The notes below the pieces were generated by a model. That model was not told where the DNA came from and made no database searches. It worked only from the letters and a program-made list of their open reading frames with translations. The position numbers and the translations under genes were made by a program. From a virus, in the UHGV virus genome UHGV-0026213: 64,000 nucleotides of DNA; one strand, written 5' to 3'. Below, one piece after another: positions 3,001-58,396 of the stretch; position 1 is the stretch's first letter; each line of letters begins with the position of its first letter.

Positions 3001-4375
3001 CCAAACCGGTAACCAATCGACTACGGGGAATGCTGCGACTGCGACTAAGCTCCAGACTGCGCGAAATATAGGTGGCGTAGCTTTTGATGGTACCAAAGAC
3101 ATCAACTTACCTGGCGTAAACCAAACGGGTAATCAGTCGACCACCGGAAACGCGGCCACGGCAACGAAGTTGCAAACTGCAAGGACCATCAACGGTGTTC
3201 CGTTTGATGGCACTAAAAACATCGAAATAACGGCTGAAAGTTTAAACCTTGGGCAAACTGTAGAATTGGCCGGTGGGTCATTGCAGAAGAAACAGAACGG
3301 TGCCGATATTCCAGATAAAAGGAAATTCTTACGAAATGTTGGTGCCCCGAACACAACAACCATATCTTTTAATGGTGGTGCCGGATGGTTCAAACTGGCA
3401 ACTGTAACGATGCCACAAGCCAGTTCCGTGGTTTACATAAGCCTGATTGGTGGTGCAGGGTTTAACGTTGGTTCCCCGCATCAAGCAGGTATCTCTGAGC
3501 TGGTTCTGCGTGCAGGAAATGGGAATCCAAAAGGTATTACTGGTGCGTTATGGCGACTGACCTCAGTCGGCTTCACTAATTTTGCATGGGTGAATACATC
3601 TGGTGACACTTACGATATTTATGTTGAAATAGGTAATTACGCCACCGGTGTTAATATTCAGTGGGACTACACTAGTAATGCCAACGTAACGATTCACACA
3701 TCGCCAAGTTATACGGCTAATAAACCCGCAGGACTAACAGACGGTACCGTCTATCTGATTTACAGCACACACAACAAACCTAACGCTGGTGACGTCGGTG
3801 CGTTACCGTCAGGGGGCGGTACTATAGGTGGCGATTTAACCGTTAACGGTAAATTGGTCACTAAGTACCCTGATTTTCGAATCGCTTACGGCAACTACGG
3901 CTTTATGTTACGTAACGATGGTGCCAATACCTATTTCTTAGTAACCGACGCCGGACAAGCTGCAACGGGTTCCTGGAACGGACTACGTCCGTTGTATTTT
4001 AATAACGCTAACGGCCAAGTAACCTTTGGTCATAACGTTACTGGCAGCGGTAACGGTTCGTTTAACGACGTACAGATTCGTTCTGACCGTCGTAACAAAC
4101 GTAATCTGGTGAAACTGGATAAAGCTTTGGATCGGTTAGAGTTACTAACCGGTTATTTGTACGAAATTCAGCATCCGGATGACGGTTGGCAAACCTCTGT
4201 AGGTCTAATTGCTCAAGACGCATTAGAAGCGTTACCTGAACTTGTGTCTGAGGATGATGATGCCATTTCAGGCGAAAAACGTTTACGTCTAAACTACAAT
4301 GGCGTTATTGCGCTGTTAGTAGAGGGTATGAAAGCGTTGCGTCAAGAGGTTAACGAAATTAAAGGAAGATCCTAA
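2..4375 (+). CDS. Long tail fibre protein, 5' partial (frame open from window start); coiled-coil N-terminal part, about seven ~34-aa fibre repeats, C-terminal intramolecular chaperone (peptidase S74-like) domain
   Basis: Frame is open from position 2 with no stop before the first listed start at 188. Repeats of the form GNQxTTGNAATATKLxTARxIGGVxFDGxxDI match the phage tail fibre repeat pattern. C-terminus RSDRRNKRNLVKLDKALDRLELLTGYLYEIQ...EGMKALRQEV matches self-cleaving chaperone domains of endosialidase and L-shaped tail fibres. Conserved NGADIPDK(x)F(x)RN(I/V)G motif occurs twice. Confidence 0.85.
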   Translation, partial: ETAKQQTDTLASTVSEQAGTVATKTAEVSKKHAEVLAAKTAVDTVLQSVNEKAQAVATSEQSVTAAAADVTKKAETVTQQAGQVQQTATGVENTAASVEASKGAVEKIAAQVAKDKESSEGAATRSESAALRAEKIAAQGLIDASTTGKGIVKLNDTLTSESVTEAATPSTVKQLNDELQLKANKHSPNFTGKPSSPTPPKDSNDTSISTTAWVRDAIAELVGSSPETLNTLAELAEALGNDPNFATTITGELAQKQPLSPLLTAIAAVTTAANKLMYFTGSNKVRLTDFTETARSLLAKGSTADIINFLGLRTTVDKANGALQKNSNGADIPDKETFARNIGLSPDTYLRFRGEMPVDADINTFAPDANYTGTWAKSTSTNASMAKHFPEDGAVGYLEVYKAGNYSGAQRFTCRNGNVYNRMLSGAWNGANGPWSPWRMVTTGVRPLSTSIDLNSLGGAEHMGNWRNSSSSLAVFSRHYPEEGGGAQGVLEVMEGGLFGRLQRYTTRRGTMYVRGLTATWDSSNPQWEDWIQVGYQTDGAFFKANFNDLVKPGRFSVTGEATNGPLTGSSGETILGVCEVTLRLDGTGVEQNYTTYGTGVETKGRKFQRIRTGNAWSDWREVFTSYSLPLVLGIGGERANVDPLDWQTYDFKPGELICTPLNTMKNIPAGMDWGVIDGNLVSILVGPSDGASSARSMLVWRSTVSTANYRFFAVRIAGEKGSRTITPRQMPVLNAAHTWAEKQTFAKGLAGELTGNASTATKLKTARRIGGVAFDGSGDINLPGVNQQGNQNTTGNAGTATKLQTARNINGVRFDGSADININTLVGRGRVTALTGSNKGTPGIQMYEVYNNGYPTAYGNLLHLGGSTALGEGELLIGWSGTSGAHAPVYIRSRRDTADAPWSDWAQVYTARDSIPGVNTTGNQDTTGNAATATKLKTARRIGGVTFDGTGDINLPGVNQQGNQNTTGNAATATKLQTPRKIGGVNFDGSQDISLPGVNQTGNQSTTGNAATATKLQTARNIGGVAFDGTKDINLPGVNQTGNQSTTGNAATATKLQTARTINGVPFDGTKNIEITAESLNLGQTVELAGGSLQKKQNGADIPDKRKFLRNVGAPNTTTISFNGGAGWFKLATVTMPQASSVVYISLIGGAGFNVGSPHQAGISELVLRAGNGNPKGITGALWRLTSVGFTNFAWVNTSGDTYDIYVEIGNYATGVNIQWDYTSNANVTIHTSPSYTANKPAGLTDGTVYLIYSTHNKPNAGDVGALPSGGGTIGGDLTVNGKLVTKYPDFRIAYGNYGFMLRNDGANTYFLVTDAGQAATGSWNGLRPLYFNNANGQVTFGHNVTGSGNGSFNDVQIRSDRRNKRNLVKLDKALDRLELLTGYLYEIQHPDDGWQTSVGLIAQDALEALPELVSEDDDAISGEKRLRLNYNGVIALLVEGMKALRQEVNEIKGRS
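2270..3240 (+). repeat. Tandem in-frame ~100-120 nt coding repeats (fibre repeat units) inside the tail fibre gene
   Basis: Repeated protein units ...TGNAATATKL(Q/K)TAR.IGGV.FDG..DINLPGVNQ(Q/T)GNQ.T... in the translation; they create the spurious antisense ORFs 2773..3105 and 3133..3393. Confidence 0.8.
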
Positions 4376-5157
4376 TGGCAGTTGTCGGCGTAGGTGGTTG
4401 GATTGGTTCTTCAGCAAAAGCTGAAGCTGGTAACGAATGGATGTCTGGCGCGATGCGCACACTTGGTGTGCCGGTTCCAGGCTGGATGTCGCAATTGGCG
4501 GGAAAATCAAAAGAGGTCCATTATTCTATTGGTGCTAACCATAGCTATAATAAGGATACTCTTATTAACTATTTACGTTCTTTAGGCTCTACTGCTGTCG
4601 TTGTGACCATTACAGGGGATTTAGTGTCTTATAGTAGCGGGGTTCCTTGTTTAGAATTCCCTAGCAATCTTCCAAATTCGTATATTACACTCATCATCAA
4701 TCCTGGGGTTACAGTATACGGCAGAGGAGGCAACGGCGGTTCTAACTCACCAGGCGGTGCAGGTGGAACCGCAATACAGAACGGAATAGGAAACAGACTG
4801 CGTATAACCAACCGTGGCGCTATTGCCGGAGGCGGTGGCGGCGGTGGCGGCGGTAACAGGGGTAGACTAATATTTGGTGGTGGCGGTGGTCGCCCATTCG
4901 GTGCTGGTGGGTCTTCCTCTCATATGAGTTCCGGTGCGGCTGCTGGTACTATTTCCGCTCCTGGTAAAGGATCTGTTGGTGAGGGGTCTCTTAGTGCATA
5001 TACAGGCGGTTCGGGTGGTAATGTCGGTGCTGCTGGAGGAAGATGTAATACTCATGGTAACGGTACAGAATATAACGGCGGAGCAGCTGGTGCAGCTGTT
5101 ACTGGTAATGCGCCAAGATGGGACGCAGTAGGTGCAATATACGGTTCACGTGTTTAA
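4375..5157 (+). CDS. Glycine-rich tail-fibre tip adhesin-like protein (T2/S16 gp38-like, from recalled similarity)
   Basis: Start overlaps the fibre gene stop (TAATG) with AAAGGAAG RBS. N-terminus MAVVGVGGWIGSSA...WMSQLAGKS followed by Gly-rich motifs (GGNGGSNSPGGAGG, G9 run, GGGGGRPFGAGG). Position immediately 3' of a processed fibre gene fits a receptor-binding adhesin. Confidence 0.6.
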   Translation: MAVVGVGGWIGSSAKAEAGNEWMSGAMRTLGVPVPGWMSQLAGKSKEVHYSIGANHSYNKDTLINYLRSLGSTAVVVTITGDLVSYSSGVPCLEFPSNLPNSYITLIINPGVTVYGRGGNGGSNSPGGAGGTAIQNGIGNRLRITNRGAIAGGGGGGGGGNRGRLIFGGGGGRPFGAGGSSSHMSSGAAAGTISAPGKGSVGEGSLSAYTGGSGGNVGAAGGRCNTHGNGTEYNGGAAGAAVTGNAPRWDAVGAIYGSRV

Positions 5158-5173: not shown

Positions 5174-5677
5174 ATGGGGGTAGCGTCAGGATGGGTCGGT
5201 TCTTCGGCCAAGAACGAAACGGGCGAACAATGGATGAGCGCTGCGGGTAGTAAATTAGGATTGGGTAGACCTTTTATGATGAGCCAAATGGTGGGACGAT
5301 CTATGGGCTGTAAAATTGCAACTGCTGCATATAGCGATTCTTTAGGTAAGAAATGGGGAGCAGTAGGGCCAAGTTGGCCGTTAAACCAGAAAAATCAGGG
5401 GACCATTCAAAACGCGGGTAACTGCGGGGTGGGAACTTTAGTAGGTATTGAGTTACAGTTAACGACGATAGTTGCCAACGCAAAGCCTACTTTAGCGGTT
5501 TACTTACAAGGAGGCAGAGCCTCTAACATTACCGTAAATTTAGGTGGCAACACCTGCGCGCTGACCTATCAGCAGGTTATTAACGGACAGCATTATTACT
5601 GGACTAATAACATCAGCGCTGCGTTCCAAAACGTGATGAAATCGACAGGCGCACTACGTGATTTGAGAATTAGCTAA
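5174..5677 (+). CDS. Paralogue of the adhesin-like protein: shared N-terminal ~45 aa, different C-terminal domain
   Basis: N-terminus MGVASGWVGSSAKNETGEQWMSAAG...MMSQMVGRS aligns with the 4375 protein N-terminus; C-terminal part lacks poly-Gly runs. Confidence 0.5.
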   Translation: MGVASGWVGSSAKNETGEQWMSAAGSKLGLGRPFMMSQMVGRSMGCKIATAAYSDSLGKKWGAVGPSWPLNQKNQGTIQNAGNCGVGTLVGIELQLTTIVANAKPTLAVYLQGGRASNITVNLGGNTCALTYQQVINGQHYYWTNNISAAFQNVMKSTGALRDLRIS

Positions 5678-17805: not shown

Positions 17806-18396
17806 ATGGCCGAACGTTGGACTAAAGAAGGTATTATTGCTTCGAAAACAGATTTAGAAGGCGGGTACGTAAACGACCCTGACGATAAAGGTGGGGAAAC
17901 CTGTCACGGTGTAACACTAACAACTGCACGCGAATACGGGTATAAAGGAAAAATGAAGGATCTGACCCGTGCGCAGGCGTTTGATATTTACGATCGCGGT
18001 TGGTGGAAGAAACTTAAACTCGATGAGATTTTAGCTATTTCACCCTTACTCGCAGACCGGATGTTTGATTTTGCTATTAACTCTGGCCGCGTTAACTGTG
18101 TGAAATCGTTACAACGTATTCTGAACGTTTTAAATAACGAAGGGAAACTTTACGCAGATATTGACACCGACGGTGGCATGGGGCCTAAAACGCTAGGTGC
18201 CCTGAATGCTTATCTGAATTACCGTAAAGGCGAGGGGTTAGGTATCTTAATCTTTGCGTTAATCTCACACCAGGTAACCTACTACACGGAAATCTCCGAA
18301 AAGCGTAAGAAGAATGAAAAATTCGCTTACGGCTGGTACGCACGCGTGTTCAGAGAAATGCCGGATTATGTGGCGAAGGCAGGGTTAGTAAAATGA
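17806..18396 (+). CDS. Endolysin: GH108-type lysozyme domain plus C-terminal PG_binding_3-like domain
   Basis: EGGYVNDPDDKGGETCHGVT matches the GH108 signature motif; C-terminal GGMGPKTLGALN...YGWYARV resembles the peptidoglycan-binding domain paired with GH108. Confidence 0.8.
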   Translation: MAERWTKEGIIASKTDLEGGYVNDPDDKGGETCHGVTLTTAREYGYKGKMKDLTRAQAFDIYDRGWWKKLKLDEILAISPLLADRMFDFAINSGRVNCVKSLQRILNVLNNEGKLYADIDTDGGMGPKTLGALNAYLNYRKGEGLGILIFALISHQVTYYTEISEKRKKNEKFAYGWYARVFREMPDYVAKAGLVK

Positions 18397-19756: not shown

Positions 19757-19793
19757 CCCTACTCCTTATCGGGAGTAGGGTAGTTTTTTATTG
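19757..19793. terminator. Terminator between convergent genes
   Basis: ccctactcc-ttatcg-ggagtaggg followed by tagttttttattg. Confidence 0.75.
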
Positions 19794-20270
19794 TTCCGCA
19801 GGATGGAGCATTGTTCCGGTGTCAGGGGCTACACCTTCTTTACAGTGGAAGAAAGTAATGCCTTTACCATCACCCGTTTTATATTCTAAAGTAGAATACG
19901 CAAATGTTGGCGTTTTTGAAAGTAACCCATTTACACGATAGTAACGTTGTCCAGTGATAGGATCGATATTTCCATTAACTTTACCTAATAGATCTTTATA
20001 AAGTTGTGGCGACTCAATCTTACCATTTGGCCAAGTGGCTACCCAGTTAGCACCAGTATCGATTATAGTTACTGAGCCTAACATTAGGTTAGTCGAACTG
20101 ACGACAGGTTTGTAATTTACAAAATCTTGCTCTACACCCATACAGGTGTAAATAACCATGTCGTGTGGTTCCACCGGCACAGTCGAGAATTGACCGTTAG
20201 CGGTGGGTTGTAAAGCACATCCTGCTAATGAAAAAACACCAACCATAGCGATAAGAAAACGTTTTAGCAT
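19788..20270 (-). CDS. Putative lipoprotein
   Basis: Signal peptide plus lipobox (MLKRFLIAMVGVFSLAGC); AAGGTGA RBS before ATG at 20270. Listed ORF extends to 20330 without RBS. Confidence 0.6.
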   Translation of the reverse strand: MLKRFLIAMVGVFSLAGCALQPTANGQFSTVPVEPHDMVIYTCMGVEQDFVNYKPVVSSTNLMLGSVTIIDTGANWVATWPNGKIESPQLYKDLLGKVNGNIDPITGQRYYRVNGLLSKTPTFAYSTLEYKTGDGKGITFFHCKEGVAPDTGTMLHPAEQ

Positions 20271-20408
20271 GTTTTCACCTTTTATAAAAAAGTTAAAAAT
20301 AATAATTTTACAGACGACCCTTACTGCCATCTGTCATAACTATTAAAACCACTTCTATAATCCGAACAATACTATGCAATCCACCCTGCCACACACGAGG
20401 TAAAAACG

Positions 20409-22286: not shown

Positions 22287-22834
22287 TCATCGTCTCCTTT
22301 AATCAACCCTAATTCGATTAACAGTTCAAAATCGATATGACGGAATCTTGTGTCGAAGTCAGATTCCCAATCGATACGGATACCCTGGCATTCTTCTGGC
22401 GTTAGCTCAGGAAAAATCACGCTATTAAATTTCTCCCGCTCATCGTAAAACCCATCAATCGGTGAGTTCGGGTTACGTGTTGCGAAGATAGTAATGCCTG
22501 GGAAGGACAATGCCAACACAGTGATAGATTCTGCGCTGGGTTCGCTTAAAGAGCGGCGTAGAAACGCAATTTTGTGACGTGGGAAATCCAATACCCGCTC
22601 TTCAAACCCTGGATTACGTTTTTCGATTTCCGCGACCGACAGGTCAGTAAGTTCGGTGCAGTACATCGGGATGATCACAGTCACGCCGTGACGAATCAGC
22701 AAGCGTTTTACGTCATCGGTAAAATCTTCACCGTTAATCACCACATAACAACCGAATAGCTTACTGTTTTCCAGAAACTTATCCAGAAGTCGAATTCTAC
22801 GCTTCGTAATATTGTTGATCAGAATTGGTTTCAT
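22262..22834 (-). CDS. Hypothetical protein in the radical-SAM/peptide operon
   Basis: 190-aa ORF overlapping the radical-SAM gene end. Confidence 0.55.
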   Translation of the reverse strand: MKPILINNITKRRIRLLDKFLENSKLFGCYVVINGEDFTDDVKRLLIRHGVTVIIPMYCTELTDLSVAEIEKRNPGFEERVLDFPRHKIAFLRRSLSEPSAESITVLALSFPGITIFATRNPNSPIDGFYDEREKFNSVIFPELTPEECQGIRIDWESDFDTRFRHIDFELLIELGLIKGDDECLLLVKA

Positions 22835-24119
22835 CTTTGGCTTCTCTTAATAATTTTTCCTTTTGGGCGCGTTCACGGACACAGCGTGGACAATAACACA
22901 TACTCGTGTCGTGGAACGCTTTTGCTGACGTCGTACCCATCTTCTGTTTCCAGTATTCCGCCACCATCAGTTTCGCTGTCGTCCAGCCACACTGACGTCG
23001 TTCAGCGTGATACGCTTTACGGTCTTCTAACGTTCCTTCCCCGTTCTCGTAAGAAGCCGCCGCGCAGCTACCACAAGCGTGTTTCATCGGACAACCTAAA
23101 CAGGTCTCTGGGTAGTTGGTATATTGCGTTTGAATCTCTTCTAACAATTTACCGTTGTCCAGACTGACGAATTCCCGACCTACCAACTCAAACACCGCAG
23201 AACGTGACGTTACCGTTGACATAAAGCGGTTACAGCCAAAGATCTTACGGTCAAACCCTAAGCACGTCATGTGCGTTAACGTCCCACAGAACGGACGTAA
23301 ACGTTCTGGGTTCAACCGTACGGTGTCATTATACAGTAACTGGTCACGCCAGTTCGGTTCCCAAATCGTATCGAAATCCAACCCTTCTGGAATGATGTGC
23401 GATAAGATATTACGTGGGTTGGTGTGTAATCCTTTCTCAACCCAATAATCTATCACATCCATCATCTGTAAAGCGATTGACGTCGCCATGCTACGTGGCA
23501 TAACGTCTTCGAAAGTTACGTTTCCAGAAATTGTCCCACCGCCAGTAATGTCAATTAATGACTTCATCCCCGCAGCATAGAACGGCAGCGTTTCTAACGT
23601 AAAGGTTGCTTTTACGCCGAGCTCTGCAATGCCAACCTCTTTTAAGTAGTTATAGCCACGTACTGCGGCTTCGTAAGAACCTTGACGTGTCGTTGTGAAG
23701 ATACGGTATCGATCGTGGGACTCCGGTAAGCCGTCAATCGAAACCCCAACTGAAAGTTTGTCTTTCCAACGTTCTACAATCTCACGGTTCAACGGACGAT
23801 CTAACAGCGTTCCGTTCGTGGAGATACTAAACATAAACGGTCGGTTGTGTTCTTTGCACAACTGCTCAGCGGTTTCAAACGCAGCCAGCAGCAGTTTAGG
23901 CTGCATGAACGGCTCACCACCGATAATGTCGATAATAACTTCAACATTCGGTTCGTTTTTATCACGTTCAAAACAGGCGTGCAAGAAATCAACAATGTCG
24001 GCCGCTTTGTTGTTACGTGGGTACTTACGTTCGTAACAATATTCGCAGTCCAGGTTACACGAAAGGTTGGTTACAATCTGATACGTTAACTGCTTAGGGA
24101 ATTCATTTGCTTGGCTCAT
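22797..24119 (-). CDS. Radical SAM enzyme with SPASM/twitch-like Cys-rich C-terminal domain; candidate peptide maturase
   Basis: CNLDCEYC (CX3CX2C) at residues about 21-28 and IIGGEPFM glycine-rich SAM motif; C-terminal CGTLTHMTC...CLGCPMKHACGSC...CYCPRC cysteine cluster. Confidence 0.8.
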   Translation of the reverse strand: MSQANEFPKQLTYQIVTNLSCNLDCEYCYERKYPRNNKAADIVDFLHACFERDKNEPNVEVIIDIIGGEPFMQPKLLLAAFETAEQLCKEHNRPFMFSISTNGTLLDRPLNREIVERWKDKLSVGVSIDGLPESHDRYRIFTTTRQGSYEAAVRGYNYLKEVGIAELGVKATFTLETLPFYAAGMKSLIDITGGGTISGNVTFEDVMPRSMATSIALQMMDVIDYWVEKGLHTNPRNILSHIIPEGLDFDTIWEPNWRDQLLYNDTVRLNPERLRPFCGTLTHMTCLGFDRKIFGCNRFMSTVTSRSAVFELVGREFVSLDNGKLLEEIQTQYTNYPETCLGCPMKHACGSCAAASYENGEGTLEDRKAYHAERRQCGWTTAKLMVAEYWKQKMGTTSAKAFHDTSMCYCPRCVRERAQKEKLLREAKDETNSDQQYYEA

Positions 24120-25026
24120 TTGCCGCCCCTCTATTACGCCCTGCCATCACCACACGACGAATATATTCGTACGCCTCTACACCGATAGAGAAGGCCAGTT
24201 GGTTACATCCCGATTCCAGAACGTTAGGCGCATTCTGGAGTTGGTGCTCACCGCCGTCTGCATTAATCCAAAGACTTTCGCTGCAAACGTTACACCCTTC
24301 TTCAAACACTTTACTTACCGTAAAGCCGCATTCACGACTATTTACTACATTCAGTCGTTCAATGTTGTCCTGAACCTGATAGTAGCCGTAAATAAAGTTC
24401 ATGACGTGGTCAGGCGATAAAGGTTTTGGCATTTTCGCATCTAAGAGTAACGTCATTGCACGGAAACCGTAATGGTAAATCGCGCTGTGCAGCTGAATAA
24501 TATCTTCGTGCCAGCGTTTGTCCCCTAAACGGTCCCGTGTCAGGACACCCCAAGTCTGGACATTATCCAGCTCGTAGATCGTTTCCAGTGCTTCGTAACA
24601 GCCTTCGTCAATAAAGCGCATAAACGGGCGCTCAGACGACTTAAACCCATCGATGCTAACGTAGACATTGTCAAACTGTTTTAGCAACGGGAGATGCGAT
24701 TTACGCATCTTTAAGCCATTGGTATACAACTGGTGTTTGAGTTCTGGACGAATCACTTTTAATTCGTCAACAAACGCCTCAATTTTACGGGTTGCCAGTA
24801 ATGGCTCACCACCCGTCCACTGAATTTCGGTAATGGTTGGATTAGCTTCCAGCGCTTCCAAAATTCGTTCACGTTGAAACTCTCGCGGAGAATCTTCACG
24901 ATTCATGTAATAGGCTCCACCGCAGAAGCTACAGTCCAGGTTACACTTGGACGTAGCGACTACGGACAATACGGTGGGTTTATCGTATAAACGATTCGAT
25001 AACCTTGGTTCTGCATTGGTTGTCAT
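24103..25026 (-). CDS. Radical SAM enzyme (second, shorter)
   Basis: CNLDCSFCGG CX3CX2C motif and WTGGEPLL; GGAG RBS. Confidence 0.75.
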   Translation of the reverse strand: MTTNAEPRLSNRLYDKPTVLSVVATSKCNLDCSFCGGAYYMNREDSPREFQRERILEALEANPTITEIQWTGGEPLLATRKIEAFVDELKVIRPELKHQLYTNGLKMRKSHLPLLKQFDNVYVSIDGFKSSERPFMRFIDEGCYEALETIYELDNVQTWGVLTRDRLGDKRWHEDIIQLHSAIYHYGFRAMTLLLDAKMPKPLSPDHVMNFIYGYYQVQDNIERLNVVNSRECGFTVSKVFEEGCNVCSESLWINADGGEHQLQNAPNVLESGCNQLAFSIGVEAYEYIRRVVMAGRNRGAANEPSK

Positions 25027-44989: not shown

Positions 44990-45018
44990 CGGGACGTTCC
45001 TTAGATCGGAATTGAATT

Positions 45019-45044
45019 CAGATATATATTACTTAAGTGAATAG
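45019..45044 (+). promoter_or_regulatory. Conserved promoter-like motif, copy 3 (cagatatatattacttaAgtgaatag)
   Basis: Lies in the divergent intergenic region upstream of the 45.1-49.3 kb plus-strand block. Confidence 0.6.
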
Positions 45045-45410: not shown

Positions 45411-46148
45411 ATGAGAGAATTATTAGACGATATCTTTACCAACACCAGTTTAGAACTTTCTTCTACGGTGGTTAACGAACTAATAGGGCAAACCCAACCT
45501 GCTAAGTTAATCGATGTTGGAACAATTAAACCTGAAGATTATCCAGACAGTGACGTTATCGACTGTATGATTGACGAATACGTGATAGGAAGTTACGCCA
45601 ACCGCGTCTTCTTTGTTATTAATACCGAAACCAGTGTCATGTTAATCTATAAGTTGATCAGTGATGCCGAACTTGAAGTTGTGGCTGACCACATTCGTCT
45701 TCTTGCGAACACACCTACTAGTATCGCTGATGTGCTTATTGGGAACGGTTGGGCTTTACCACCACTATTCTCTTACTTCCCTCTGTTTAGAAATGGGATA
45801 GGGTTACTCCGAAATGCAGAAAATCTTCCCGATAACGTCGAGTTATCACTGCTTGGACCCGGCATCGATCTTTGTCCATTAGAAGACGAGGGCACGCTAT
45901 ATGGTTTGCGCATCTATGTTTCTGTGTTAAACGGATACCGCGTTATTGAACTAATTGCATCCGACTTAGCAAAACAGATCCCAGATGTGGAAACGATTTC
46001 TAAAGCCACCCACCTGGTTGAGATTAACTCAGATGATCCCTTATTGAAATATCACGAGAAAATTGATCTTCGTAAAATCGCCACGATGAGAGGGTGGGGT
46101 TGTGCTGAGATTACGAAGGACTATCTGCTGTTAATTAAAACCGCGTAA
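45411..46148 (+). CDS. Hypothetical protein, loosely related to the GW...LLF C-terminal family
   Basis: C-terminus RGWGCAEITKDYLLLIKTA. Confidence 0.55.
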   Translation: MRELLDDIFTNTSLELSSTVVNELIGQTQPAKLIDVGTIKPEDYPDSDVIDCMIDEYVIGSYANRVFFVINTETSVMLIYKLISDAELEVVADHIRLLANTPTSIADVLIGNGWALPPLFSYFPLFRNGIGLLRNAENLPDNVELSLLGPGIDLCPLEDEGTLYGLRIYVSVLNGYRVIELIASDLAKQIPDVETISKATHLVEINSDDPLLKYHEKIDLRKIATMRGWGCAEITKDYLLLIKTA

Positions 46149-46177
46149 TTAAGAAAACCGAAAAAGGAGAATATACC

Positions 46178-46732
46178 ATGTTTCAAACTGAACTGAAAAA
46201 TGAAATTATCCAAACCCTTGAAAAGGGCGTAGGCGAACATTTCTTTGTCCGTCCTTATACCGTACTGACCAATACCATTATTCAGCCTGGTGCGATGATA
46301 GTAGGGGTAAGTGTACAAGCTGTAGAGGAAACCCCGCTGCGTCGTAACATCACACGTAAAACCCATATCCCATTTAAAACAGGTTTTACAGATTACCTTC
46401 AGAGCTTACTGGGGGATAGCGCTTGGAAAACAGGCAGCTTCTTCCACGAAGGGAAGACTTCCACGCTGGTTTATAAAGAGAGCACCAAGTATCTGGTTGA
46501 TTTTCTCTTAGCGCGTCAGTATACTTTCTTTCCAACCCCTACTGACTGCACCCCAGACAACCCAGGTAAGTTATTAAACCAAAGCGAAGCCGAGGCACTC
46601 TTTACAAGACTTCGGAATGAACAGTGCGATGTTGACGACTGGGAAACGTTGATCGCGGTCGCTAAAGCCCACGGTTGGTATACCGTACGTAAAATCGGCC
46701 AGCAGCTGTTGTTCTTAGCTTACCCTGCTTAA
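46178..46732 (+). CDS. Hypothetical protein, GW...QLLF C-terminal family
   Basis: C-terminus AHGWYTVRKIGQQLLFLAYPA. Confidence 0.6.
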   Translation: MFQTELKNEIIQTLEKGVGEHFFVRPYTVLTNTIIQPGAMIVGVSVQAVEETPLRRNITRKTHIPFKTGFTDYLQSLLGDSAWKTGSFFHEGKTSTLVYKESTKYLVDFLLARQYTFFPTPTDCTPDNPGKLLNQSEAEALFTRLRNEQCDVDDWETLIAVAKAHGWYTVRKIGQQLLFLAYPA

Positions 46733-46761
46733 GTAACGAAAAAACCTAAAGGAGAGTAAAA

Positions 46762-47913
46762 ATGCGAAATATTATTTCTAAACCAGGACATGCCAAGATC
46801 CTAAAAGAACTGATGGACAGATGCTATAATCGGACTTGGTCACTACCAAGCTTAACCATCGAATCTTCATTACAACGTGAGTTGTTTGGTTATAACTTGG
46901 GCTGCTGTGTACTTACTGAATACAATGAGATTATCGCACCTGTCGATGTCTGTACTTACGATGAAGAAATTGAAGGTTACAAGTTCGCGGTTTACACAAA
47001 TTGTGGACTAAATTACCGTAAACTCGTTGTTAGGGAAAAGAGTAGCAACCGGAAGATTATGTTTAAGGTCTTCCCAAGTGGTAAAGTCAGTAATTTATGT
47101 CTTCAGCTTGAGAAAGTGCCCTTTCACGGTGCAGCCATTTTAACTAAACCAGAACTCCTGTTATTAAGCGGGTTAATTGGCTTTGAAGTAAAAACCATCA
47201 AAGTTGAGCAGGAACTTACACGAAACGATTTCGGCTCAACTTGGTACGAAAGTTTCTTCCGCTACGAAATGTTAAGTGATAAAGCTATCAAACTCACTTA
47301 CCGTTCTACCGACGATATCGTTTACCACATTTTAATTAGCGGCGAACCCCACCAGATTATTGAAGACGAAGGAGAAAAATCAGTGTGCACCTTAAAAGAT
47401 GAATTAACTGATTTTGTTAACAAAATTGATAACGTGGGTATCAGTGAATTATTGTTCCCGATACAGCATCCAGAGTTGCTTGACGAGAAATCTGAAAACG
47501 TGGTTATGGGTGTGCATTTACTTCCTGACCATCTTGCTATCTACCGTACACTTTCTAAAAATCAACTTAAAGTGTGGTGCCTGTTAAAAGACCTTTTAAC
47601 AGAGGCGGGGTGGTCGTGTAGTGTAGATGTTAACTGTGAAGGAGTTGCGTTCTTCATCACAATAGGCAATCGTAGTTTTTCTGTCGATTTACCTACTCGC
47701 AGCTATTACAATTTCTTCCCGACCGCAGAAGGACGTACTGAAAAAGAACCCGCATTACTGCTCAGTGCTGAGGAGTCCAATGCGTTAATGACGAAACTAA
47801 AAGCGAAAGACGAGAAGCTGGATGCTTTACATCTACCTATAATCGGGAAAGACTACGGTTGGGCTGACGTGCAAAAATACGGCAGCCAACTGTTGTTTGT
47901 TGCCAACATTTAA
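46762..47913 (+). CDS. Hypothetical protein, GW...QLLF C-terminal family
   Basis: C-terminus DYGWADVQKYGSQLLFVANI. Confidence 0.6.
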   Translation: MRNIISKPGHAKILKELMDRCYNRTWSLPSLTIESSLQRELFGYNLGCCVLTEYNEIIAPVDVCTYDEEIEGYKFAVYTNCGLNYRKLVVREKSSNRKIMFKVFPSGKVSNLCLQLEKVPFHGAAILTKPELLLLSGLIGFEVKTIKVEQELTRNDFGSTWYESFFRYEMLSDKAIKLTYRSTDDIVYHILISGEPHQIIEDEGEKSVCTLKDELTDFVNKIDNVGISELLFPIQHPELLDEKSENVVMGVHLLPDHLAIYRTLSKNQLKVWCLLKDLLTEAGWSCSVDVNCEGVAFFITIGNRSFSVDLPTRSYYNFFPTAEGRTEKEPALLLSAEESNALMTKLKAKDEKLDALHLPIIGKDYGWADVQKYGSQLLFVANI

Positions 47914-47980
47914 TAAGTGAAACTACACTTTCTCTAACTGCCGCGCTTTAGTCGCGGCTTTTGTTAAGAAGGAAATAGAA

Positions 47981-48754
47981 ATGAAAGTCCATTTAGACGA
48001 TATCTTTAAAACCGAACCGTATATGATCGAAGGCCCGCTATCATCACTACTATTTGCCGATAGATTAGATCGTACGCTGCAATTACAATCGGTCGAATCT
48101 GCACCCGTTGATGATGTAGAGCGTTACGAGCGCATCAACCATACGCGGGGTGAGTATCGTCGCTATAAGCCAAATTCACTAAGCATCAAGCTCTGGCAAG
48201 TGAGCACAGGTAAAGTATTAACTTATCGCGCTGTTGGTAGTTATTACATTCAACAAGCCAAGGAATGGCTAGAGAAAGTTAAAGAACTGAACTTCGATCT
48301 ACTGAGCAAAAAACTGCGCGATCATAACGCCAGTTTGCCGATACGTAATTATTTCTCCACGATTGAAAATAGTCGTTGTTTCGTTTCTCGTGAATCCACG
48401 ATATTACCTGGGGATGATGTTCAGACGACACTAAAAGATGTGGTTGTGAAGAAAATCTTTCATGAATCTGAACACGTTGGGTTCCGTATCTACTTAACAC
48501 ACAAGAGACCATTTACCGTTATTCACGTTGATACCGCACCCGAAGGCTCAGCGGTTATTCGAGAACTTCCTGATGCTCGAGACCGTTGCCCTAATGAGCC
48601 GCTTTATTTAATGTCAGGAACAAAATCAACCGCGTTGATGTCCCGTTACAGCATGTTAGATGTTGTTGACGCTGCTATGAAACTAGGTTGGAAAGAAGTG
48701 CAGCAACATGGTAAACAATTGCTGTTTATTGCCGATGTAAAACTTAATCAATAG
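47981..48754 (+). CDS. Hypothetical protein, GW...QLLF C-terminal family
   Basis: C-terminus KLGWKEVQQHGKQLLFIADVKLNQ. Confidence 0.6.
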   Translation: MKVHLDDIFKTEPYMIEGPLSSLLFADRLDRTLQLQSVESAPVDDVERYERINHTRGEYRRYKPNSLSIKLWQVSTGKVLTYRAVGSYYIQQAKEWLEKVKELNFDLLSKKLRDHNASLPIRNYFSTIENSRCFVSRESTILPGDDVQTTLKDVVVKKIFHESEHVGFRIYLTHKRPFTVIHVDTAPEGSAVIRELPDARDRCPNEPLYLMSGTKSTALMSRYSMLDVVDAAMKLGWKEVQQHGKQLLFIADVKLNQ

Positions 48755-48766
48755 TGAGGTGGTACC

Positions 48767-49345
48767 GTGTACCGATTAATAGAAATGCGAAAAGACGTTT
48801 GGTTGGAAAACCTCGTCGATGGGGAGCTTGAGGGAATAGAGCTTTCCTTACCAGAAAGAGCGGACACGGTATTGGTCTTTCTGATAAAACAGGCAGCGAA
48901 TGAACCGGTAGGAATCTTCAGCGTGGACTATAAAGACCCACGAGGGATTCATTTACGGAACATTTGCAGTGGTTTAGAAAGCTTACCGGCTAATCCGTTC
49001 TTAAACTACGCAAAACGTAAACTCCAGCCTGGACAACATCTCTGGGTAGTTCTAGCGCCTGATACACGCATTATACGTGACGACCTGACTGCGTTTGTCC
49101 AAGCAACGAAAGTCAGTTTGTACAATCCTAATGCGGATCGTACCGATATGCCGTTTACAATCACCTTAGAAGACGATGGAACGCAAGAGGGTATTGAGGC
49201 AATTACGGAATTAGTAAACTCTTATCCGGTAGCGTCTATTGAGTTAGAAAACCCAAACCGATTACCGTTGGGTGATTTACTCGAATGGATTGAGCTGAAT
49301 ACCGAGTTCCTCATTAACTCCCGGCAGTACCGGTTCGATGTATAA
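48767..49345 (+). CDS. Hypothetical protein (GTG start)
   Basis: 192-aa ORF. Confidence 0.55.
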   Translation: MYRLIEMRKDVWLENLVDGELEGIELSLPERADTVLVFLIKQAANEPVGIFSVDYKDPRGIHLRNICSGLESLPANPFLNYAKRKLQPGQHLWVVLAPDTRIIRDDLTAFVQATKVSLYNPNADRTDMPFTITLEDDGTQEGIEAITELVNSYPVASIELENPNRLPLGDLLEWIELNTEFLINSRQYRFDV

Positions 49346-49349
49346 CATC

Positions 49350-49383
49350 GGTGGGGGTTTACCCCCCACCTTTTATTTTTTTG
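49350..49383 (+). terminator. Intrinsic terminator
   Basis: ggtggggg-ttta-ccccccacc followed by ttttatttttttg. Confidence 0.8.
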
Positions 49384-49406
49384 TTCGTTAATATTAAAAA
49401 TAATTT

Positions 49407-49431
49407 CAGATATATATTACTTAGGTGAGAG
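49407..49431 (+). promoter_or_regulatory. Conserved promoter-like motif, copy 4 (cagatatatattacttaggtgagag)
   Basis: Identical to copy 2 including the upstream A/T block; precedes the secreted-protein gene array. Confidence 0.65.
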
Positions 49432-49476
49432 TTACGATTAACTCTTTATACATTAACGCCATGAAGGAGCAAAACA

Positions 49477-49938
49477 ATGAAAATCTTCACTTCCTTTTTA
49501 ATCGCCCTTTTCGTAATCGGTTTCAATACTGCACACGCCGCTATCAATAACTGGGAACAAATACAAAACCCTGGCCAGGCAGTTTACGAAATTGAAGACA
49601 CCGCCGGAAACGGACTGTCTATCAACTGTGACACAGAAACTGCGAATCGCAAATTTTACGGTCGCATGGTTTGGTATTACGGTGAACCCGTAGGTGCAAC
49701 TAACGCGGAAGATAACACGTTGGATATTGTCGTAAACGGCAAGACCTATAACATCCCTACCGTGGACGGTAGTGACAAAGCAGAACACGCTTGGGTTGCT
49801 TTCGTTAATGCTATCGGTAATGCCAAAACTTTCAGTGTGAGTATCAATGGTAACGACACCGCTAACTTTACCGTAGAAGGCGAACGTCTGTCTGAAACTT
49901 TCTTCCAGAACTGTGGACACACCCGTCCTAACAAATAA
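49477..49938 (+). CDS. Small secreted protein 1 (signal peptide)
   Basis: MKIFTSFLIALFVIGFNTAHA signal peptide; AAGGAG RBS. Confidence 0.6.
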   Translation: MKIFTSFLIALFVIGFNTAHAAINNWEQIQNPGQAVYEIEDTAGNGLSINCDTETANRKFYGRMVWYYGEPVGATNAEDNTLDIVVNGKTYNIPTVDGSDKAEHAWVAFVNAIGNAKTFSVSINGNDTANFTVEGERLSETFFQNCGHTRPNK

Positions 49939-49960
49939 CTATTAGTCTTTTTTAGAGTGC

Positions 49961-50353
49961 GTGAAAATGAATATCAGAACTATACTTTATATCATCATTA
50001 TTTTCTGTGCGGTCGGAATTACTGGCACTTATGCTTTCGGTGATTCGGATGTCCGCTATTACGAACCGGCTCCTGACTCACCGATTATCAACCCGGATGA
50101 GACGCCTGCGTTAATGCGCAGTTTCGGTAAACTGCAAGTTTATCGTTTAGTGCGTGGTGAAACCTGTACGGGTTTACTCATTGCTGACACCCGTGCACAA
50201 GTCTACCAACGTCTAACCGATATCGCCTGCGAACAACCAAAAGTCATGTCGGTTAGTATCCATCCGCTATCAGTTGGTAACTATACCGCTGTGGACTTCT
50301 TTCACAACGCCGAATTAATCGGGCGCGTTACCTTAAATCGTCCTGCCGAATAA
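49961..50353 (+). CDS. Small secreted or membrane-anchored protein 2
   Basis: N-terminal hydrophobic segment ILYIIIIFCAVGITGTYA. Confidence 0.55.
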   Translation: MKMNIRTILYIIIIFCAVGITGTYAFGDSDVRYYEPAPDSPIINPDETPALMRSFGKLQVYRLVRGETCTGLLIADTRAQVYQRLTDIACEQPKVMSVSIHPLSVGNYTAVDFFHNAELIGRVTLNRPAE

Positions 50354-50371
50354 TCTAAAGGAGTAGTTATA

Positions 50372-50857
50372 ATGAAACGTTTACACACATTGATGTTCTT
50401 TCTGGTTTTCTTGTTTATCGGTACCACGCCAACTGTAGATGCGGCCTCCGTAGACGAATTGCTTACCTGCGATGGAAACGCTTGGGAAGGTCAGCCAAAT
50501 GCGTGCCCAAACATCAACGACTTGTACGATACCGATAAGTCGTTTAAAGCCGTTGTTGATAAAACATTAGACCCTGTGGGGCTGGATGGTATGTTCGGCT
50601 CTAAAGGTTACATGGATGGTCCTGGCGGTAACATGTATCCGGTAAACATCAACAACAAAATCTGGATTGAAAGTGGCGGTTGTAAAGCTAACGCTTGTGG
50701 TTGGGAATACATCGTAACGCTATACAACCCACACACCAAGAAACTCGTCGGCTATTACTACAACATCGACCCCGGTTATCTGATTTGGTTCGGTGATATC
50801 GGTGTTGCTGAATTCGCTTACCTGGTTAAGAAGTACGTAGAACAATCTAAATACTAA
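50372..50857 (+). CDS. Small secreted protein 3
   Basis: MKRLHTLMFFLVFLFIGTTPTVDA signal peptide. Confidence 0.6.
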   Translation: MKRLHTLMFFLVFLFIGTTPTVDAASVDELLTCDGNAWEGQPNACPNINDLYDTDKSFKAVVDKTLDPVGLDGMFGSKGYMDGPGGNMYPVNINNKIWIESGGCKANACGWEYIVTLYNPHTKKLVGYYYNIDPGYLIWFGDIGVAEFAYLVKKYVEQSKY

Positions 50858-50868
50858 GGACTTTTATC

Positions 50869-51279
50869 ATGAAAACTATCATTAATACTCTTCTCATTGC
50901 AATTGCTGTTCTGTTCTCTGTCAACGCTACAGCAAAGACAATACAGTTGCCAGACAATATTAAGTACGTCAATAGCACCGATGATTTCTATTGTACGGAA
51001 ATTGACGGCTTGTACTGTCAGGCAAAGAGCCTGTTTAAATACAAAGGTAGCAGATACGTATTCATCGTTGAGCAAGGTGGTGCCTGGTGCTACGACAGCC
51101 CAATGTCCGTACTCAACCTCGAAACGTGGAAGGCTCAGCGTCTCGAATACAACGACAAACGTCTGTGCTCTGGTAATAACAAACCATTCTTCAAAGTCGT
51201 AGATGGTGTGCCAATGGTAGGGATATTAGACACTTCGGAAAAACCTATCGTTGTAGCTATGGATAAACTTAAAATTTAA
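50869..51279 (+). CDS. Small secreted protein 4
   Basis: MKTIINTLLIAIAVLFSVNATA signal peptide. Confidence 0.6.
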   Translation: MKTIINTLLIAIAVLFSVNATAKTIQLPDNIKYVNSTDDFYCTEIDGLYCQAKSLFKYKGSRYVFIVEQGGAWCYDSPMSVLNLETWKAQRLEYNDKRLCSGNNKPFFKVVDGVPMVGILDTSEKPIVVAMDKLKI

Positions 51280-51289
51280 GGAGTAACTC

Positions 51290-51679
51290 ATGCGTCTCGT
51301 CTGCGTTTTAGCATTCTTCTTCTCCCTGAGTGTAGCAGCATCTACTCAAGTTAACGATTTACTGCTAACCCCAAACAACAATACCGATTACCAGTACAAT
51401 CCTCCTGGGTTTGAAGTTTGTGAAGTCGGTGAAACAATCTGCCAAGAAGTCGGCGCAGACGGGCGCTATATTCTGGTAAAAGCTGATGGTGGCACAATGT
51501 GTCCCGCAGGTTATTACTTTCTGCTCGATTCCGTCGCAAGAGAGGTTCTTCCTATCACCACAAAAACGTGCGACCCTACTGTTGTCTTAACTCTCGCTAA
51601 AAGCAAATCTCGCGACCGTTATCTGATTGTTATCGAAGAACGGGGCAAGATGGCTGGTGCTATCGAATTAGATCATTGA
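51290..51679 (+). CDS. Small secreted protein 5
   Basis: MRLVCVLAFFFSLSVAAS signal peptide. Confidence 0.6.
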   Translation: MRLVCVLAFFFSLSVAASTQVNDLLLTPNNNTDYQYNPPGFEVCEVGETICQEVGADGRYILVKADGGTMCPAGYYFLLDSVAREVLPITTKTCDPTVVLTLAKSKSRDRYLIVIEERGKMAGAIELDH

Positions 51680-51689
51680 GTGTAGTCTT

Positions 51690-51718
51690 GGCCCCGATAC
51701 GTTCGGGGTCCTTTTTAC
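51690..51718 (+). terminator. Intrinsic terminator
   Basis: ggccccga-tacgt-tcggggtc followed by ctttttacg. Confidence 0.65.
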
Positions 51719-51745
51719 GACATGTTTACCTAAAGGAGTATTAAA

Positions 51746-52222
51746 ATGCAATTATCTAACGTTTACCAAGCTGCGCAATTTCATCATGACCTGTCGGCTA
51801 AACCTGAACAAATTCGCCACAACTTAACGGTGGCCTGGAAACTGCTGCGTATCGCCGAAGCCTCCCGCCTTAACGATCAGTCGACGATTATCGAGACGGT
51901 GCGCACACTACATCCAGTCGACCTGGAAACAATCTGGACCTTTGATTTAACCCGAATTTATCACCGTCGTTTTAATGCGGCAGTTGATGCAATCCGTCCT
52001 TACTTTCATCACCTGCGAACAACACGCGAAAATGACACCGCACTTGAGTGGGTATTGGTACAAAGCGTATGGAGCGACTACATTTATCTCCTTTCTTTAG
52101 AGACGGGTGAATGTATCGTTGCTAACGAAGTTTTTTCAAGTAACGCAGAAATGTATCGTTCCTTCGCGACGATTAAAGGTGAAACACAACCTATTTTATC
52201 ACTCACGCACTTAGGGCTGTAA
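51746..52222 (+). CDS. Hypothetical protein
   Basis: 158-aa ORF preceded by tttacctaaaggagtattaaaATG. Confidence 0.6.
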   Translation: MQLSNVYQAAQFHHDLSAKPEQIRHNLTVAWKLLRIAEASRLNDQSTIIETVRTLHPVDLETIWTFDLTRIYHRRFNAAVDAIRPYFHHLRTTRENDTALEWVLVQSVWSDYIYLLSLETGECIVANEVFSSNAEMYRSFATIKGETQPILSLTHLGL

Positions 52223-57597: not shown

Positions 57598-57697
57598 ATA
57601 TTATCATTAGGGCACACAACAAAGGAGTATTAGCTGTCCGCGCCGTCATTTCGTCTTACGGAATACGGAAATGTATAAATCCAACTGGAGAAACAAA

Positions 57698-58396
57698 ATG
57701 TTTCGTATCTTCTTTCTTTTACTGGTAACACTTTTCGCGTTTAACGCACAGGCGTCAACGTCAACGCCACATTCTAAGCATCAGCGTGAGTTTGCACAAA
57801 TCCAACATCGGTTCGAAAAAGTCAGCCCGTTAATTGTGGAAATCTCACGAAAGCAGGGCGTTGATCCCAAGCTGATGATTACGCTGATTTATCGTGAATC
57901 GCGTTTTGATCCCAAGGCTTACAACAAAAGCTCACGAGCACATAGCCTGGTACAGATGCTTCCAAGTACCAAGCGTAATCTGCTAAAGCTTTATGGAAAA
58001 GAATTAGGTCTTAGTCAGAACGCTGATTTGTATAATCCGCGTAATGCTGTTTTGCTGGCTACCGCGTATGTTAAACATCTTGAGAAGGGGTTAACCAAAC
58101 GACTCAAACGCAAGCCCACCATGGCTGAAATTGCGTTAGCTTACCACTGGGGTGAAAGTGGCGCTCACACGCGAATCAAAAGCAAATCTCGAGCAGCACA
58201 ACGAGAAATGGCAGGCTTTATGAAAGACGCCGCGTTCTATAGCGCGAAAATCGATGTGCCTGTTGTTGTGGGCTCGGCCCCACGTCAGCTTGCGTTTGCG
58301 AAGAAAACACCACGTCAGATTCAACTGGCGGAAGTTAGTAGAATTTGGGATACGATAAACACGAGTTTTCCAATCAATAGAGGAGTTACCCTTTGA
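57698..58396 (+). CDS. Secreted lytic transglycosylase (SLT-domain) protein
   Basis: Signal peptide MFRIFFLLLVTLFAFNAQA; ESRFDPKA and SLVQM resemble SLT catalytic-region motifs. Start set to ATG at 57698 (GGAG RBS); the listed ORF begins at 57671. Confidence 0.6.
   Translation: MFRIFFLLLVTLFAFNAQASTSTPHSKHQREFAQIQHRFEKVSPLIVEISRKQGVDPKLMITLIYRESRFDPKAYNKSSRAHSLVQMLPSTKRNLLKLYGKELGLSQNADLYNPRNAVLLATAYVKHLEKGLTKRLKRKPTMAEIALAYHWGESGAHTRIKSKSRAAQREMAGFMKDAAFYSAKIDVPVVVGSAPRQLAFAKKTPRQIQLAEVSRIWDTINTSFPINRGVTL

Follow-up and report, generated by a model that had tools for sequence, protein, structure and literature searches.

The question raised by positions 49477 to 51679 of virus genome UHGV-0026213 (a stretch of 64,000 nucleotides (nt), analysed at its full length and called the window below) is what purpose is served by five consecutive small genes, p1 to p5, whose products are all predicted to leave the cytoplasm. 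The genome is that of a jumbo phage related to Salmonella phage SPN3US and to Erwinia phages phiEaH2 and Asesino (the SPN3US/Seoulvirus-Erskinevirus group). The original prediction, made from the sequence alone, held that the five proteins carry signal peptides and no other recognisable motif; the second half of this statement proved wrong, as p3 is a divergent member of the Ivy family, p1 belongs to the YfjT family, and p4 and p5 are paralogues of one another. To judge from sequence comparison and from analogy with characterised systems, the five genes may form an early periplasmic module which protects the cell wall and excludes superinfecting phages, a reading whose chances we consider to be about even.

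The array was borne out as five consecutive small genes on the + strand (128-161 amino acids (aa); Table 1), with a Shine-Dalgarno sequence ahead of every gene and intergenic gaps of 10-28 nt. Compared with sibling phages, substitutions fell mainly at third codon positions and were mostly synonymous in the + frame; because of this bias, p1 to p5 are judged to be genuine genes under purifying selection and not overlapping open reading frames (ORFs) of the - strand. A scan of the operon region against Rfam gave no RNA family at E <= 0.1. Base composition gave no sign of recent transfer, the G+C content of p1 and p3, overall (GC) and at third codon positions (GC3), being unremarkable.

Signal peptides were called by a heuristic with three requirements, namely basic residues at the N-terminus, a hydrophobic core and a cleavage site of AXA type. 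Of the 72 ORFs in a crude map of the window, 6 passed it, and five of these are the consecutive genes p1 to p5, a run with a chance probability of P ~3e-5. The hydrophobic cores of the five proteins have a mean Kyte-Doolittle value of 2.8-3.3 over the best 10 residues, and cleavage is predicted at AHA/A in p1, TYA/F in p2, VDA/A in p3, ATA/K in p4 and AAS/T in p5 (the slash marks the cleaved bond). The N-terminus of p3, MKRLHTLMFFLVFLFIGTTPTVDA/A, passes the heuristic, and its signal peptide is kept across the p3 family. A signal peptide was likewise found in every orthologue, from ten other phages, which upholds the claim that all five proteins begin with one. In addition, the number of cysteines in the mature part is always even (two in p1 and p2, four in p3, p4 and p5), as fits disulfide-bonded periplasmic proteins. 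The orthologue signal peptides, the even cysteine counts and the periplasmic family of p3 together support the view that p1 to p5 would be exported via the host Sec pathway. Neither a conserved lipobox nor a second hydrophobic or transmembrane segment was found after the signal peptide in any of the five. A lipoprotein or spanin reading of p2 was considered and rejected, since the cysteine in its signal peptide forms a lipobox in SPN3US alone (LAAC) and not in the other orthologues.

When p3 was searched directly, it matched the NCBIfam Ivy model NF007443 weakly (18.6 bits, E = 1.3e-3, below the cut-off of 180) and gave no match in a scan with Pfam PF08816. Pfam Ivy was found below threshold in 8 of 12 close relatives of p3, and a profile of the p3 clade reached Ivy of known structure (PDB 1GPQ) at E = 1.2. 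These weak matches align on one and the same region, where GGCKANACGW of p3 corresponds to SACKPHDCGS of Ivy. A search of 1.84 billion representative sequences with the p3-clade profile (hmmsearch) yielded 56 relatives at E <= 1e-3. Of these, 28 were aligned together with p3 and three close homologues; Pfam Ivy was matched by 26 of the resulting 32 sequences (best E-value 7.6e-12), and a profile of the extended relatives from which the p3 clade had been left out scored p3 itself at 92.8 bits (E = 1.9e-29) over residues 28-154. The assignment of p3 to the Ivy superfamily is well supported because significant intermediate sequences match Ivy and score p3 strongly, and the modelled fold, the export signal and the loop described below point the same way. 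The AlphaFold model of p3 is of moderate confidence (predicted local distance difference test (pLDDT) 65, predicted template modelling score (pTM) 0.63); in a Foldseek search with this model the five best of 350,542 chains were all Ivy, with weak E-values of 0.1-0.3, and there was no significant match in the BFVD viral library.

The disulfide loop of p3, C104-K-A-N-A-C109, aligns with CKPHDC of 1GPQ, the loop motif of Ivy (bioRxiv 10.1101/2024.04.20.590424). Its cysteine pair is invariant in the p3 clade and nearly invariant in the extended family, with spacing and position strictly kept, while the residues between vary: CKSNAC in a sibling phage, CKAHAC or CKANTC in E. coli islands, and a consensus of CExHNC in the extended family. 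Compared with known Ivy proteins (PF08816; PDB 1GPQ, 1XS0, 1UUZ and 4PS6), p3 differs by the asparagine in its loop and by one additional disulfide at the N-terminal end (C33-C45), scores under the curated cut-offs of Pfam and NCBIfam when taken alone, and is encoded by a lytic jumbo phage in a putative early operon; no report of an Ivy-family gene in a phage was found in the literature searched. Ivy proteins are periplasmic inhibitors of C-type lysozymes which in vitro also inhibit the lytic transglycosylases MltB and, weakly, MltA (PMC10139938). On sequence grounds, the array as a whole was judged not to be a set of Ivy-like paralogues: the p5 family against the Ivy-like family gave an hhalign probability of 0.2%, and the Ivy-like profile had no significant score against p1, p2, p4, p5 or gp181-183 of SPN3US.

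Three of the other four genes belong to a cassette of the jumbo-phage group. Megablast of 49300-51750 recovered solely an intergenic motif of ~55 nt, reflecting strong divergence from the named relatives, and the loci beside these matches in SPN3US, phiEaH2 and Asesino were set aside, because the matches proved to be mere further copies of the promoter motif and the genes next to them were unrelated. By tblastn, the syntenic SPN3US locus was identified as gp180-gp183, which directly precedes gp184, gp185 and the SbcC-like gp186; the array of the window likewise lies just ahead of homologues of these three genes. The orthologue of p2 is gp180 (48% identity; phrog_9424 at 4.9e-40; matches in 53 phage records), that of p4 is gp182 (30% identity; phrog_8968 at 3.5e-33; 40 phage records) and that of p5, which has an invariant C-P-A-G-Y motif, is gp183 (47% identity; phrog_5248 at 5.3e-31; 55 phage records). 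The p4 and p5 families are full-length paralogues (hhalign probability 97%, E = 1.1e-10, 121 columns), and gp181 clusters with p4/p5-type proteins. A PDB sequence search found no relative of known structure for the p2 family, and direct scans of p1 to p5 against Pfam, NCBIfam, PADLOC and PDB sequences gave nothing significant beyond the weak Ivy signal of p3.

The same plan, in which a single p2-type gene precedes two or three genes of p4/p5 type and all products are predicted to be exported, was found across Seoulvirus, Erskinevirus, Machinavirus and Wellingtonvirus, and the cassette is present in SPN3US, SPAsTU, Asesino, Huxley, Caitlin, pEa_SNUABM_8 and Wellington. The array of the window resembles SPN3US gp180-gp183 and the Erwinia, Salmonella and Proteus orthologues in p2, p4 and p5 (30-51% identity), in gene order, genomic position, promoter motif and terminator; it differs in having the non-homologous, Ivy-like p3 in place of the gp181-type paralogue and an additional, YfjT-like gene, p1, at the front. 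The SPN3US-type genes are all annotated as hypothetical, and no published function was found for them. With p1 and p3, tblastn gave no match in 50,697 phage records. In one sibling phage (L012) the p1 slot is filled by an unrelated, non-exported gene of 123 aa, in another the p3 allele is just 65% identical to that of the window, and identity to the siblings differs gene by gene along the operon, a pattern that indicates recombination. On this distribution the conserved core of the cassette comprises p2, p4 and p5, with p1 and p3 in variable slots.

Some relatives also have non-exported genes between the early promoter and the exported-protein genes (L012:4243-4677, L005:5155-6754 and L006:6826-7290), namely the 123-aa gene, which has its own terminator, and a family of 150-520 aa. 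In Asesino, an unannotated ORF of ~80 aa from a conserved small family lies within the 313-nt 'intergenic' gap before gp201.

Homologues of p3 were found in E. coli chromosomes (~65% identical), and DNA matches to p2-p3 occurred in ~1650 and to p4 in 2366 of 5426 complete E. coli genomes (30-44%). The copies lie in the cargo region of CP4-type integrative islands, flanked on one side by genes for a dynamin-like GTPase, RdcB/YjcZ and patatin and on the other by DUF932, antirestriction, RadC, DUF987 and CbeA/CbtA genes. The p3 allele of a sibling phage is 95% identical in nucleotide sequence to chromosomal copies, and the boundaries of the match fall on the p3 gene alone. The island of E. coli VE-T9 holds a contiguous p3-p4 block of 949 bp with 88-89% nucleotide identity to sibling phages and the same 15-nt spacing, its p4 copy being 64-76% identical in amino acid sequence to p4; this block stops 23 nt into p5, and in other islands a frameshifted p2 remnant lies just upstream of the p3-like gene. 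Because the captured fragment is bounded by a p2 remnant and by 23 nt of p5, the block is taken to derive from the phage operon, and transfer from phage to island is favoured because p2, p4 and p5 are core genes throughout this group of jumbo phages, and because the copies in islands are similar to no phage clade but that of E. coli. The simplest reading of these sequences is that the islands captured pieces of the phage operon and that p3-slot alleles still move between island and phage. Known island genes of this kind are yfjS-yfjT of CP4-57 and a widespread p3/p4-like pair (e.g. WP_000846713.1), the latter being like the phage genes in order and spacing; the island copies differ in being chromosomal, not under the phage promoter and often fragmentary, with p2 frameshifted, p5 cut and IS1 insertions. 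The retention of operon pieces by bacteria, beside anti-phage genes, is an argument that the products function in isolation from other phage components.

The host of the phage is very likely E. coli, because a complete sibling genome (NZ_CP173450.1; 221,873 bp, circular) is filed as a plasmid of a clinical urinary E. coli isolate; it bears the same five-gene array, and its deposition as a plasmid suggests a carrier state, pseudolysogeny or co-purified phage DNA. A further island, in E. coli strain 400625 (L022:5820-7859), has its own tandem exported set in phage-like order, comprising a YfjT-like protein (155 aa), an exported protein of 209 aa, a p2 pseudogene and a 150-aa protein whose signal peptide is like that of p3 and whose mature part weakly resembles the gp181 family (E = 0.009).

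Two of the five families lead to genes of E. coli K-12. By BLASTP, p1 is 27% identical to YfjT of island CP4-57 over 135 aa (E = 2e-13) and on this similarity is a homologue of YfjT (PF27224). A precomputed match to PF27224 is held by 11 of 12 p1 homologues from the protein search and by the gene in sibling L015, and p1 matches phrog_3429 at 2e-7; a direct Pfam scan of p1 itself did not report the YfjT family. The structure model of p1 is poor (pLDDT 49, pTM 0.37). The p5 family is probably a remote relative of the K-12 lipoprotein YfjS, encoded adjacent to yfjT (hhalign probability 88%, E = 3e-6, 97 columns). This link is suggestive only, as hmmsearch gave just 16 bits and the pairing was selected post hoc; p5, unlike YfjS, is not a lipoprotein.

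The array is bounded by two intrinsic terminators and preceded by a promoter motif (Table 1). The upstream terminator (-17.5 kcal/mol, z = -3.1; 0 of 200 shuffles folded as well) isolates the operon from upstream transcription. The core of the promoter motif, ATATATATTACTTA, has four + strand copies in the window (8791, 13004, 45022 and 49410), of which the operon copy is the fourth, and no copy of the 24-mer that contains it is expected by chance in the window. Measured from the last base of the 24-mer, the ATG of p1 lies 51 nt downstream; with the conserved GTGAG counted in, the distance shrinks to 46 nt, the value originally given. This stretch is the only part of the region matched by megablast in SPN3US-like and Erwinia jumbo phages (89-98% identity), and the same motif with a short conserved hairpin heads the homologous unit in 10 of 10 relatives from four genera. 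An inverted repeat, GAGAGTT-N5/6-AACTCT (49426-49446 at the operon), follows every copy of the motif, with equivalents in relatives L004-L006, L012, L015 and L017-L020; in the early transcript it would fold into a hairpin located at the 5' end or close to it, and it is kept across genera while the surrounding DNA diverges.

Published early-promoter consensus sequences are TATATTAC for phiKZ, TTTRARR...TATATTAC...GTG for 201phi2-1 and TTTCARR... for OBP and N1M2 (PMC7058600 Table 2), and early promoters of this type in the phiKZ group are read by the injected virion RNA polymerase (PMC7598289). The operon motif fits the TTTCARR...TATATTAC...GTG consensus of phiKZ, 201phi2-1 and OBP. Sigma-70 consensus matches were fewer than in shuffled sequence, with none on the + strand. 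Given the agreement of the motif with the published consensus of early promoters and its place at the head of the unit in every relative examined, it is a well-founded inference that the operon is expressed early, probably right after infection. The closing terminator, directly after p5, folds at -17.9 kcal/mol (z = -2.75), and its GGCCC...GGGTCCTTTTT form ends the unit in 10 of 10 relatives. The succession of terminator, promoter, five genes and terminator supports p1 to p5 as one transcription unit; the original statements that the array ends at a terminator and that its genes are expressed together were thus sustained, the latter in the form of a single predicted unit under a phage-specific motif of early type.

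Table 1. Features of the operon and of other genes in the window (positions in nt)
Feature	Position	Strand	Description
Tail-fibre cluster	188-4375, 4375-5157, 5174-5677	+	T-even-type tail fibre (first ORF) and gp38-type ORFs
GH108 muramidase	17806-18396	+	Second candidate endolysin
Lipobox ORF	19788-20330	-	Internal start gives MLKRFLIAMVGVFSLAGC
Radical-SAM-like ORFs	22797-24119, 24103-25026	-	Adjacent, with CxxxCxxC motifs
Promoter-motif copy 3	45014-45037		Heads the paralogous ORFs
Paralogous ORFs	45411-49345	+	Apparent family upstream of the operon
Upstream-unit intrinsic terminator	49350-49379 (hairpin 49350-49370)	+	GGTGGGGG-TTTAC-CCCCCACC, then T-run
Early-promoter motif and hairpin	49393-49446	+	AATTTCAGATATATATTACTTAGG at 49402-49425, then GAGAGTT-N6-AACTCT
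p1	49477-49938	+	153 aa, predicted to be exported, YfjT family, variable slot
p2	49967-50353	+	128 aa from the ATG used by orthologues; 130 aa from GTG at 49961
p3	50372-50857	+	161 aa, predicted to be exported, divergent Ivy-family member
p4	50869-51279	+	136 aa, predicted to be exported, SPN3US gp182 orthologue, p5 paralogue
p5	51290-51679	+	129 aa, predicted to be exported, SPN3US gp183 orthologue
Operon-closing intrinsic terminator	51690-51716 (hairpin 51690-51710)	+	GGCCCCGA-TACGT-TCGGGGTC, then CTTTTT, directly after p5
SLT lytic transglycosylase	57671-58396	+	Sixth ORF with signal-peptide-like N-terminus

The course of events that would follow from these features begins within minutes of infection, when the injected virion RNA polymerase would read the early-type promoter, as its consensus suggests. 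The host Sec pathway would export the five products, which, to judge from their sequences, would be cleaved and fold as small disulfide-bonded periplasmic proteins and act on the envelope of the already infected cell. Most likely p3 would use its protruding disulfide loop to bind and block a glycosidase of peptidoglycan, either a lysozyme or a lytic transglycosylase, both target and activity being presumed, and the module would most likely protect the wall of the infected cell from wall-degrading enzymes acting from outside, above all the entry enzymes of superinfecting phages. Alleles of the variable slots (p1 and p3) would be exchanged with CP4-type islands, which presumably use the captured pieces as a bacterial defence.

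A functional model for such a module is Spackle (gp61.3) of T4, an early, small periplasmic inhibitor of the tail lysozyme gp5 which excludes superinfecting phage (PMC7677548). The present operon would differ in having five exported proteins in place of one, on a different fold, and no similarity to Spackle was found in Pfam, PHROG and PDB-sequence scans, in which Ivy was the one named family to appear (no direct comparison with Spackle was made). An experimental hint comes from an Ivy-like gene of E. coli: knockdown of Hypo_04657 of E. coli O121 by CRISPR interference (CRISPRi) significantly increased plating of phage T7, and the authors, who described the protein as Ivy-like with a CKANTC loop, proposed that it inhibits phage lysozyme (bioRxiv 10.1101/2024.04.20.590424). 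The same CKANTC loop is that of island alleles P0011, P0012 and P0015. Superinfection exclusion or envelope protection, one of the functions first suggested for the array, has in this way gained concrete though indirect support from the Ivy-family member, from island capture beside anti-phage genes and from the T7 preprint. Nothing points to the anti-defence function suggested alongside it, since PADLOC profiles gave no match with p1 to p5 at E <= 1 and the proteins are predicted to be periplasmic and not cytoplasmic.

Several points weigh against wall protection and exclusion. Where Ivy has a histidine in its loop, p3 has an asparagine (CKANAC against CKPHDC), and the Ivy histidine inserts into the lysozyme active site and plugs it, so that the target of p3 may differ or inhibition may be absent. 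The p3 model is moderate and its Foldseek E-values are weak, as given above, and the exported SLT transglycosylase of the phage (Table 1) is an alternative target for p3. The genes p1, p2, p4 and p5 carry no functional assignment, the p5 family has no similarity to the Ivy-like profile, and neither SPN3US nor the Erwinia phages have the Ivy-like gene, so that p3 cannot account for the core cassette. Hypo_04657 was equated with the p3 family by loop motif and fold description. Finally, E. coli Ivy inhibits lytic transglycosylases only weakly in vitro (PMC10139938).

A wider form of the same reading, which we advance tentatively and would sooner expect to fail than to hold, is that the operon is part of a periplasmic anti-phage gene pool common to lytic jumbo phages and CP4-type islands. 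The families YfjT/p1, p2, p3, p4 and p5/YfjS would each neutralise a separate enzyme or step used by competing phages to cross the envelope, E. coli would repeatedly have captured fragments as a defence, and phages would swap alleles with the resident island by homologous recombination; these details are claimed jointly and are as tentative as the whole.

The main rival to exclusion of superinfecting phages, in our judgement a rather unlikely one, is control of lysis timing, in which the periplasmic proteins, and p3 especially, would restrain the phage's own exported wall enzyme in the manner of an anti-endolysin or antiholin. An endolysin exported before lysis needs restraint, and an early inhibitor placed ahead of a late enzyme would fit; the window does encode an SLT lytic transglycosylase with a signal peptide, and Ivy proteins are reported to inhibit lytic transglycosylases (PMC10139938). 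The exported SLT enzyme is, however, kept in phages without an Ivy-like gene (SPN3US and the Erwinia phages), so that p3 is not its obligate partner, and E. coli islands keep p3-p4 without the phage enzyme. Nor were holin or antiholin features found, the mature proteins being without a transmembrane segment.

It is unlikely that the proteins remodel the envelope without any dealings with peptidoglycan hydrolases, by masking receptors, outer-membrane proteins or the transport and injection machinery (as T5 Llp does, or in a takeover of the host), with the Ivy fold serving as a scaffold. Four of the five show no detectable relation to hydrolase inhibitors, the key Ivy histidine is missing in p3, and variable slots with mosaic sibling alleles would suit fast-evolving binders of variable targets. 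The receptor-masking proteins Llp and Cor are nevertheless lipoproteins, and none of p1 to p5 is a lipoprotein or membrane-anchored, the cysteine in the p2 signal peptide not being in a conserved lipobox; the strictly conserved spacing and position of the p3 loop also suggest that the Ivy binding mode has been kept.

A shield against wall attack of non-phage origin during a long latent period (by animal lysozyme, type VI muramidase or amidase effectors, or bacteriocins), acting in the manner of immunity proteins, is quite unlikely. Tandem small exported proteins on mobile islands resemble orphan immunity-gene arrays, and the phage clade and the islands both occur in gut and urinary E. coli. 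Canonical Ivy does inhibit vertebrate C-type lysozyme (PMC10139938), but p3 is without the histidine used against that enzyme, no known immunity family was matched in Pfam, NCBIfam and PDB sequence searches, and the sole phenotype linked to the family concerns phage T7.

A role of the proteins in the virion or its assembly, or as a lysis cassette of spanin type, is very improbable: nothing specific speaks for it beyond the facts that small uncharacterised jumbo-phage proteins are often structural and that the flanks in relatives hold virion genes, and against it stand the early-type promoter, the predicted cleavable signal peptides, the lack of the lipoboxes or transmembrane anchors which spanins need, the position of the operon away from, and not adjacent to, the GH108 and SLT enzymes, and, for a virion role, the fact that gp180-gp183 go unmentioned in the SPN3US virion-proteome papers, a statement limited to their main texts.

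Exclusion by a periplasmic inhibitor, the Ivy family itself and, from the preprint, the Ivy-likeness of an E. coli homologue were already known. Apparently new, within the literature and collections searched, are an Ivy-family gene in a phage, a conserved early operon of predicted exported proteins in SPN3US-like phages, mosaic exchange with CP4-type islands found in at least a third of E. coli genomes, and the link to yfjT and, probably, yfjS. The early action of nucleus-forming and related jumbo phages on the envelope is little known, research having centred on the cytoplasm (the early vesicle and the phage nucleus), and membership of p3 in the Ivy family gives a first functional lead for one member of the cassette. 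The island copies show that genes have recently passed between a strictly lytic jumbo phage and islands which lie in the chromosomes of at least a third of E. coli genomes, and uncharacterised K-12 yfjT, probably with yfjS, is tied to phage biology. If the operon does serve exclusion, its products would be small periplasmic phage-resistance factors of relevance to host range in phage therapy, and would enlarge the short list of natural inhibitors known for the wall-degrading enzymes of phages; if the shared pool exists, it would give yfjS and yfjT a function and define a new class of periplasmic phage-defence proteins.

Other genes of the window (Table 1) include two candidate wall enzymes. 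The SLT lytic transglycosylase (Pfam SLT 8.8e-15) is kept in SPN3US-like phages under the annotation 'putative endolysin'; this phage group thus exports a wall-degrading enzyme, apparently via Sec. The GH108 muramidase has a PG_binding_3 domain. In the ORF ~1.4 kb from the GH108 gene, the N-terminus from the internal start contains a classical lipobox, and the product may be a lipoprotein of the outer membrane or part of a spanin.

The ORFs upstream of the operon form an apparent paralogous family headed by the third copy of the promoter motif, and several of them end in G(K/S)QLLF(I/V)A(D/N). In the tail-fibre cluster, the T-even-type fibre combines a T4 gp34 trimerisation domain with an endosialidase-chaperone domain, and the cluster holds a full gp38 adhesin (Pfam GP38 2.5e-70) and a second ORF with a gp38-like N-terminus. 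The two adjacent ORFs with CNLDCEYC and CNLDCSFC, a CxxxCxxC pattern typical of radical S-adenosylmethionine (radical-SAM) enzymes, sit in a - strand block beside very large tail-fibre-like genes.

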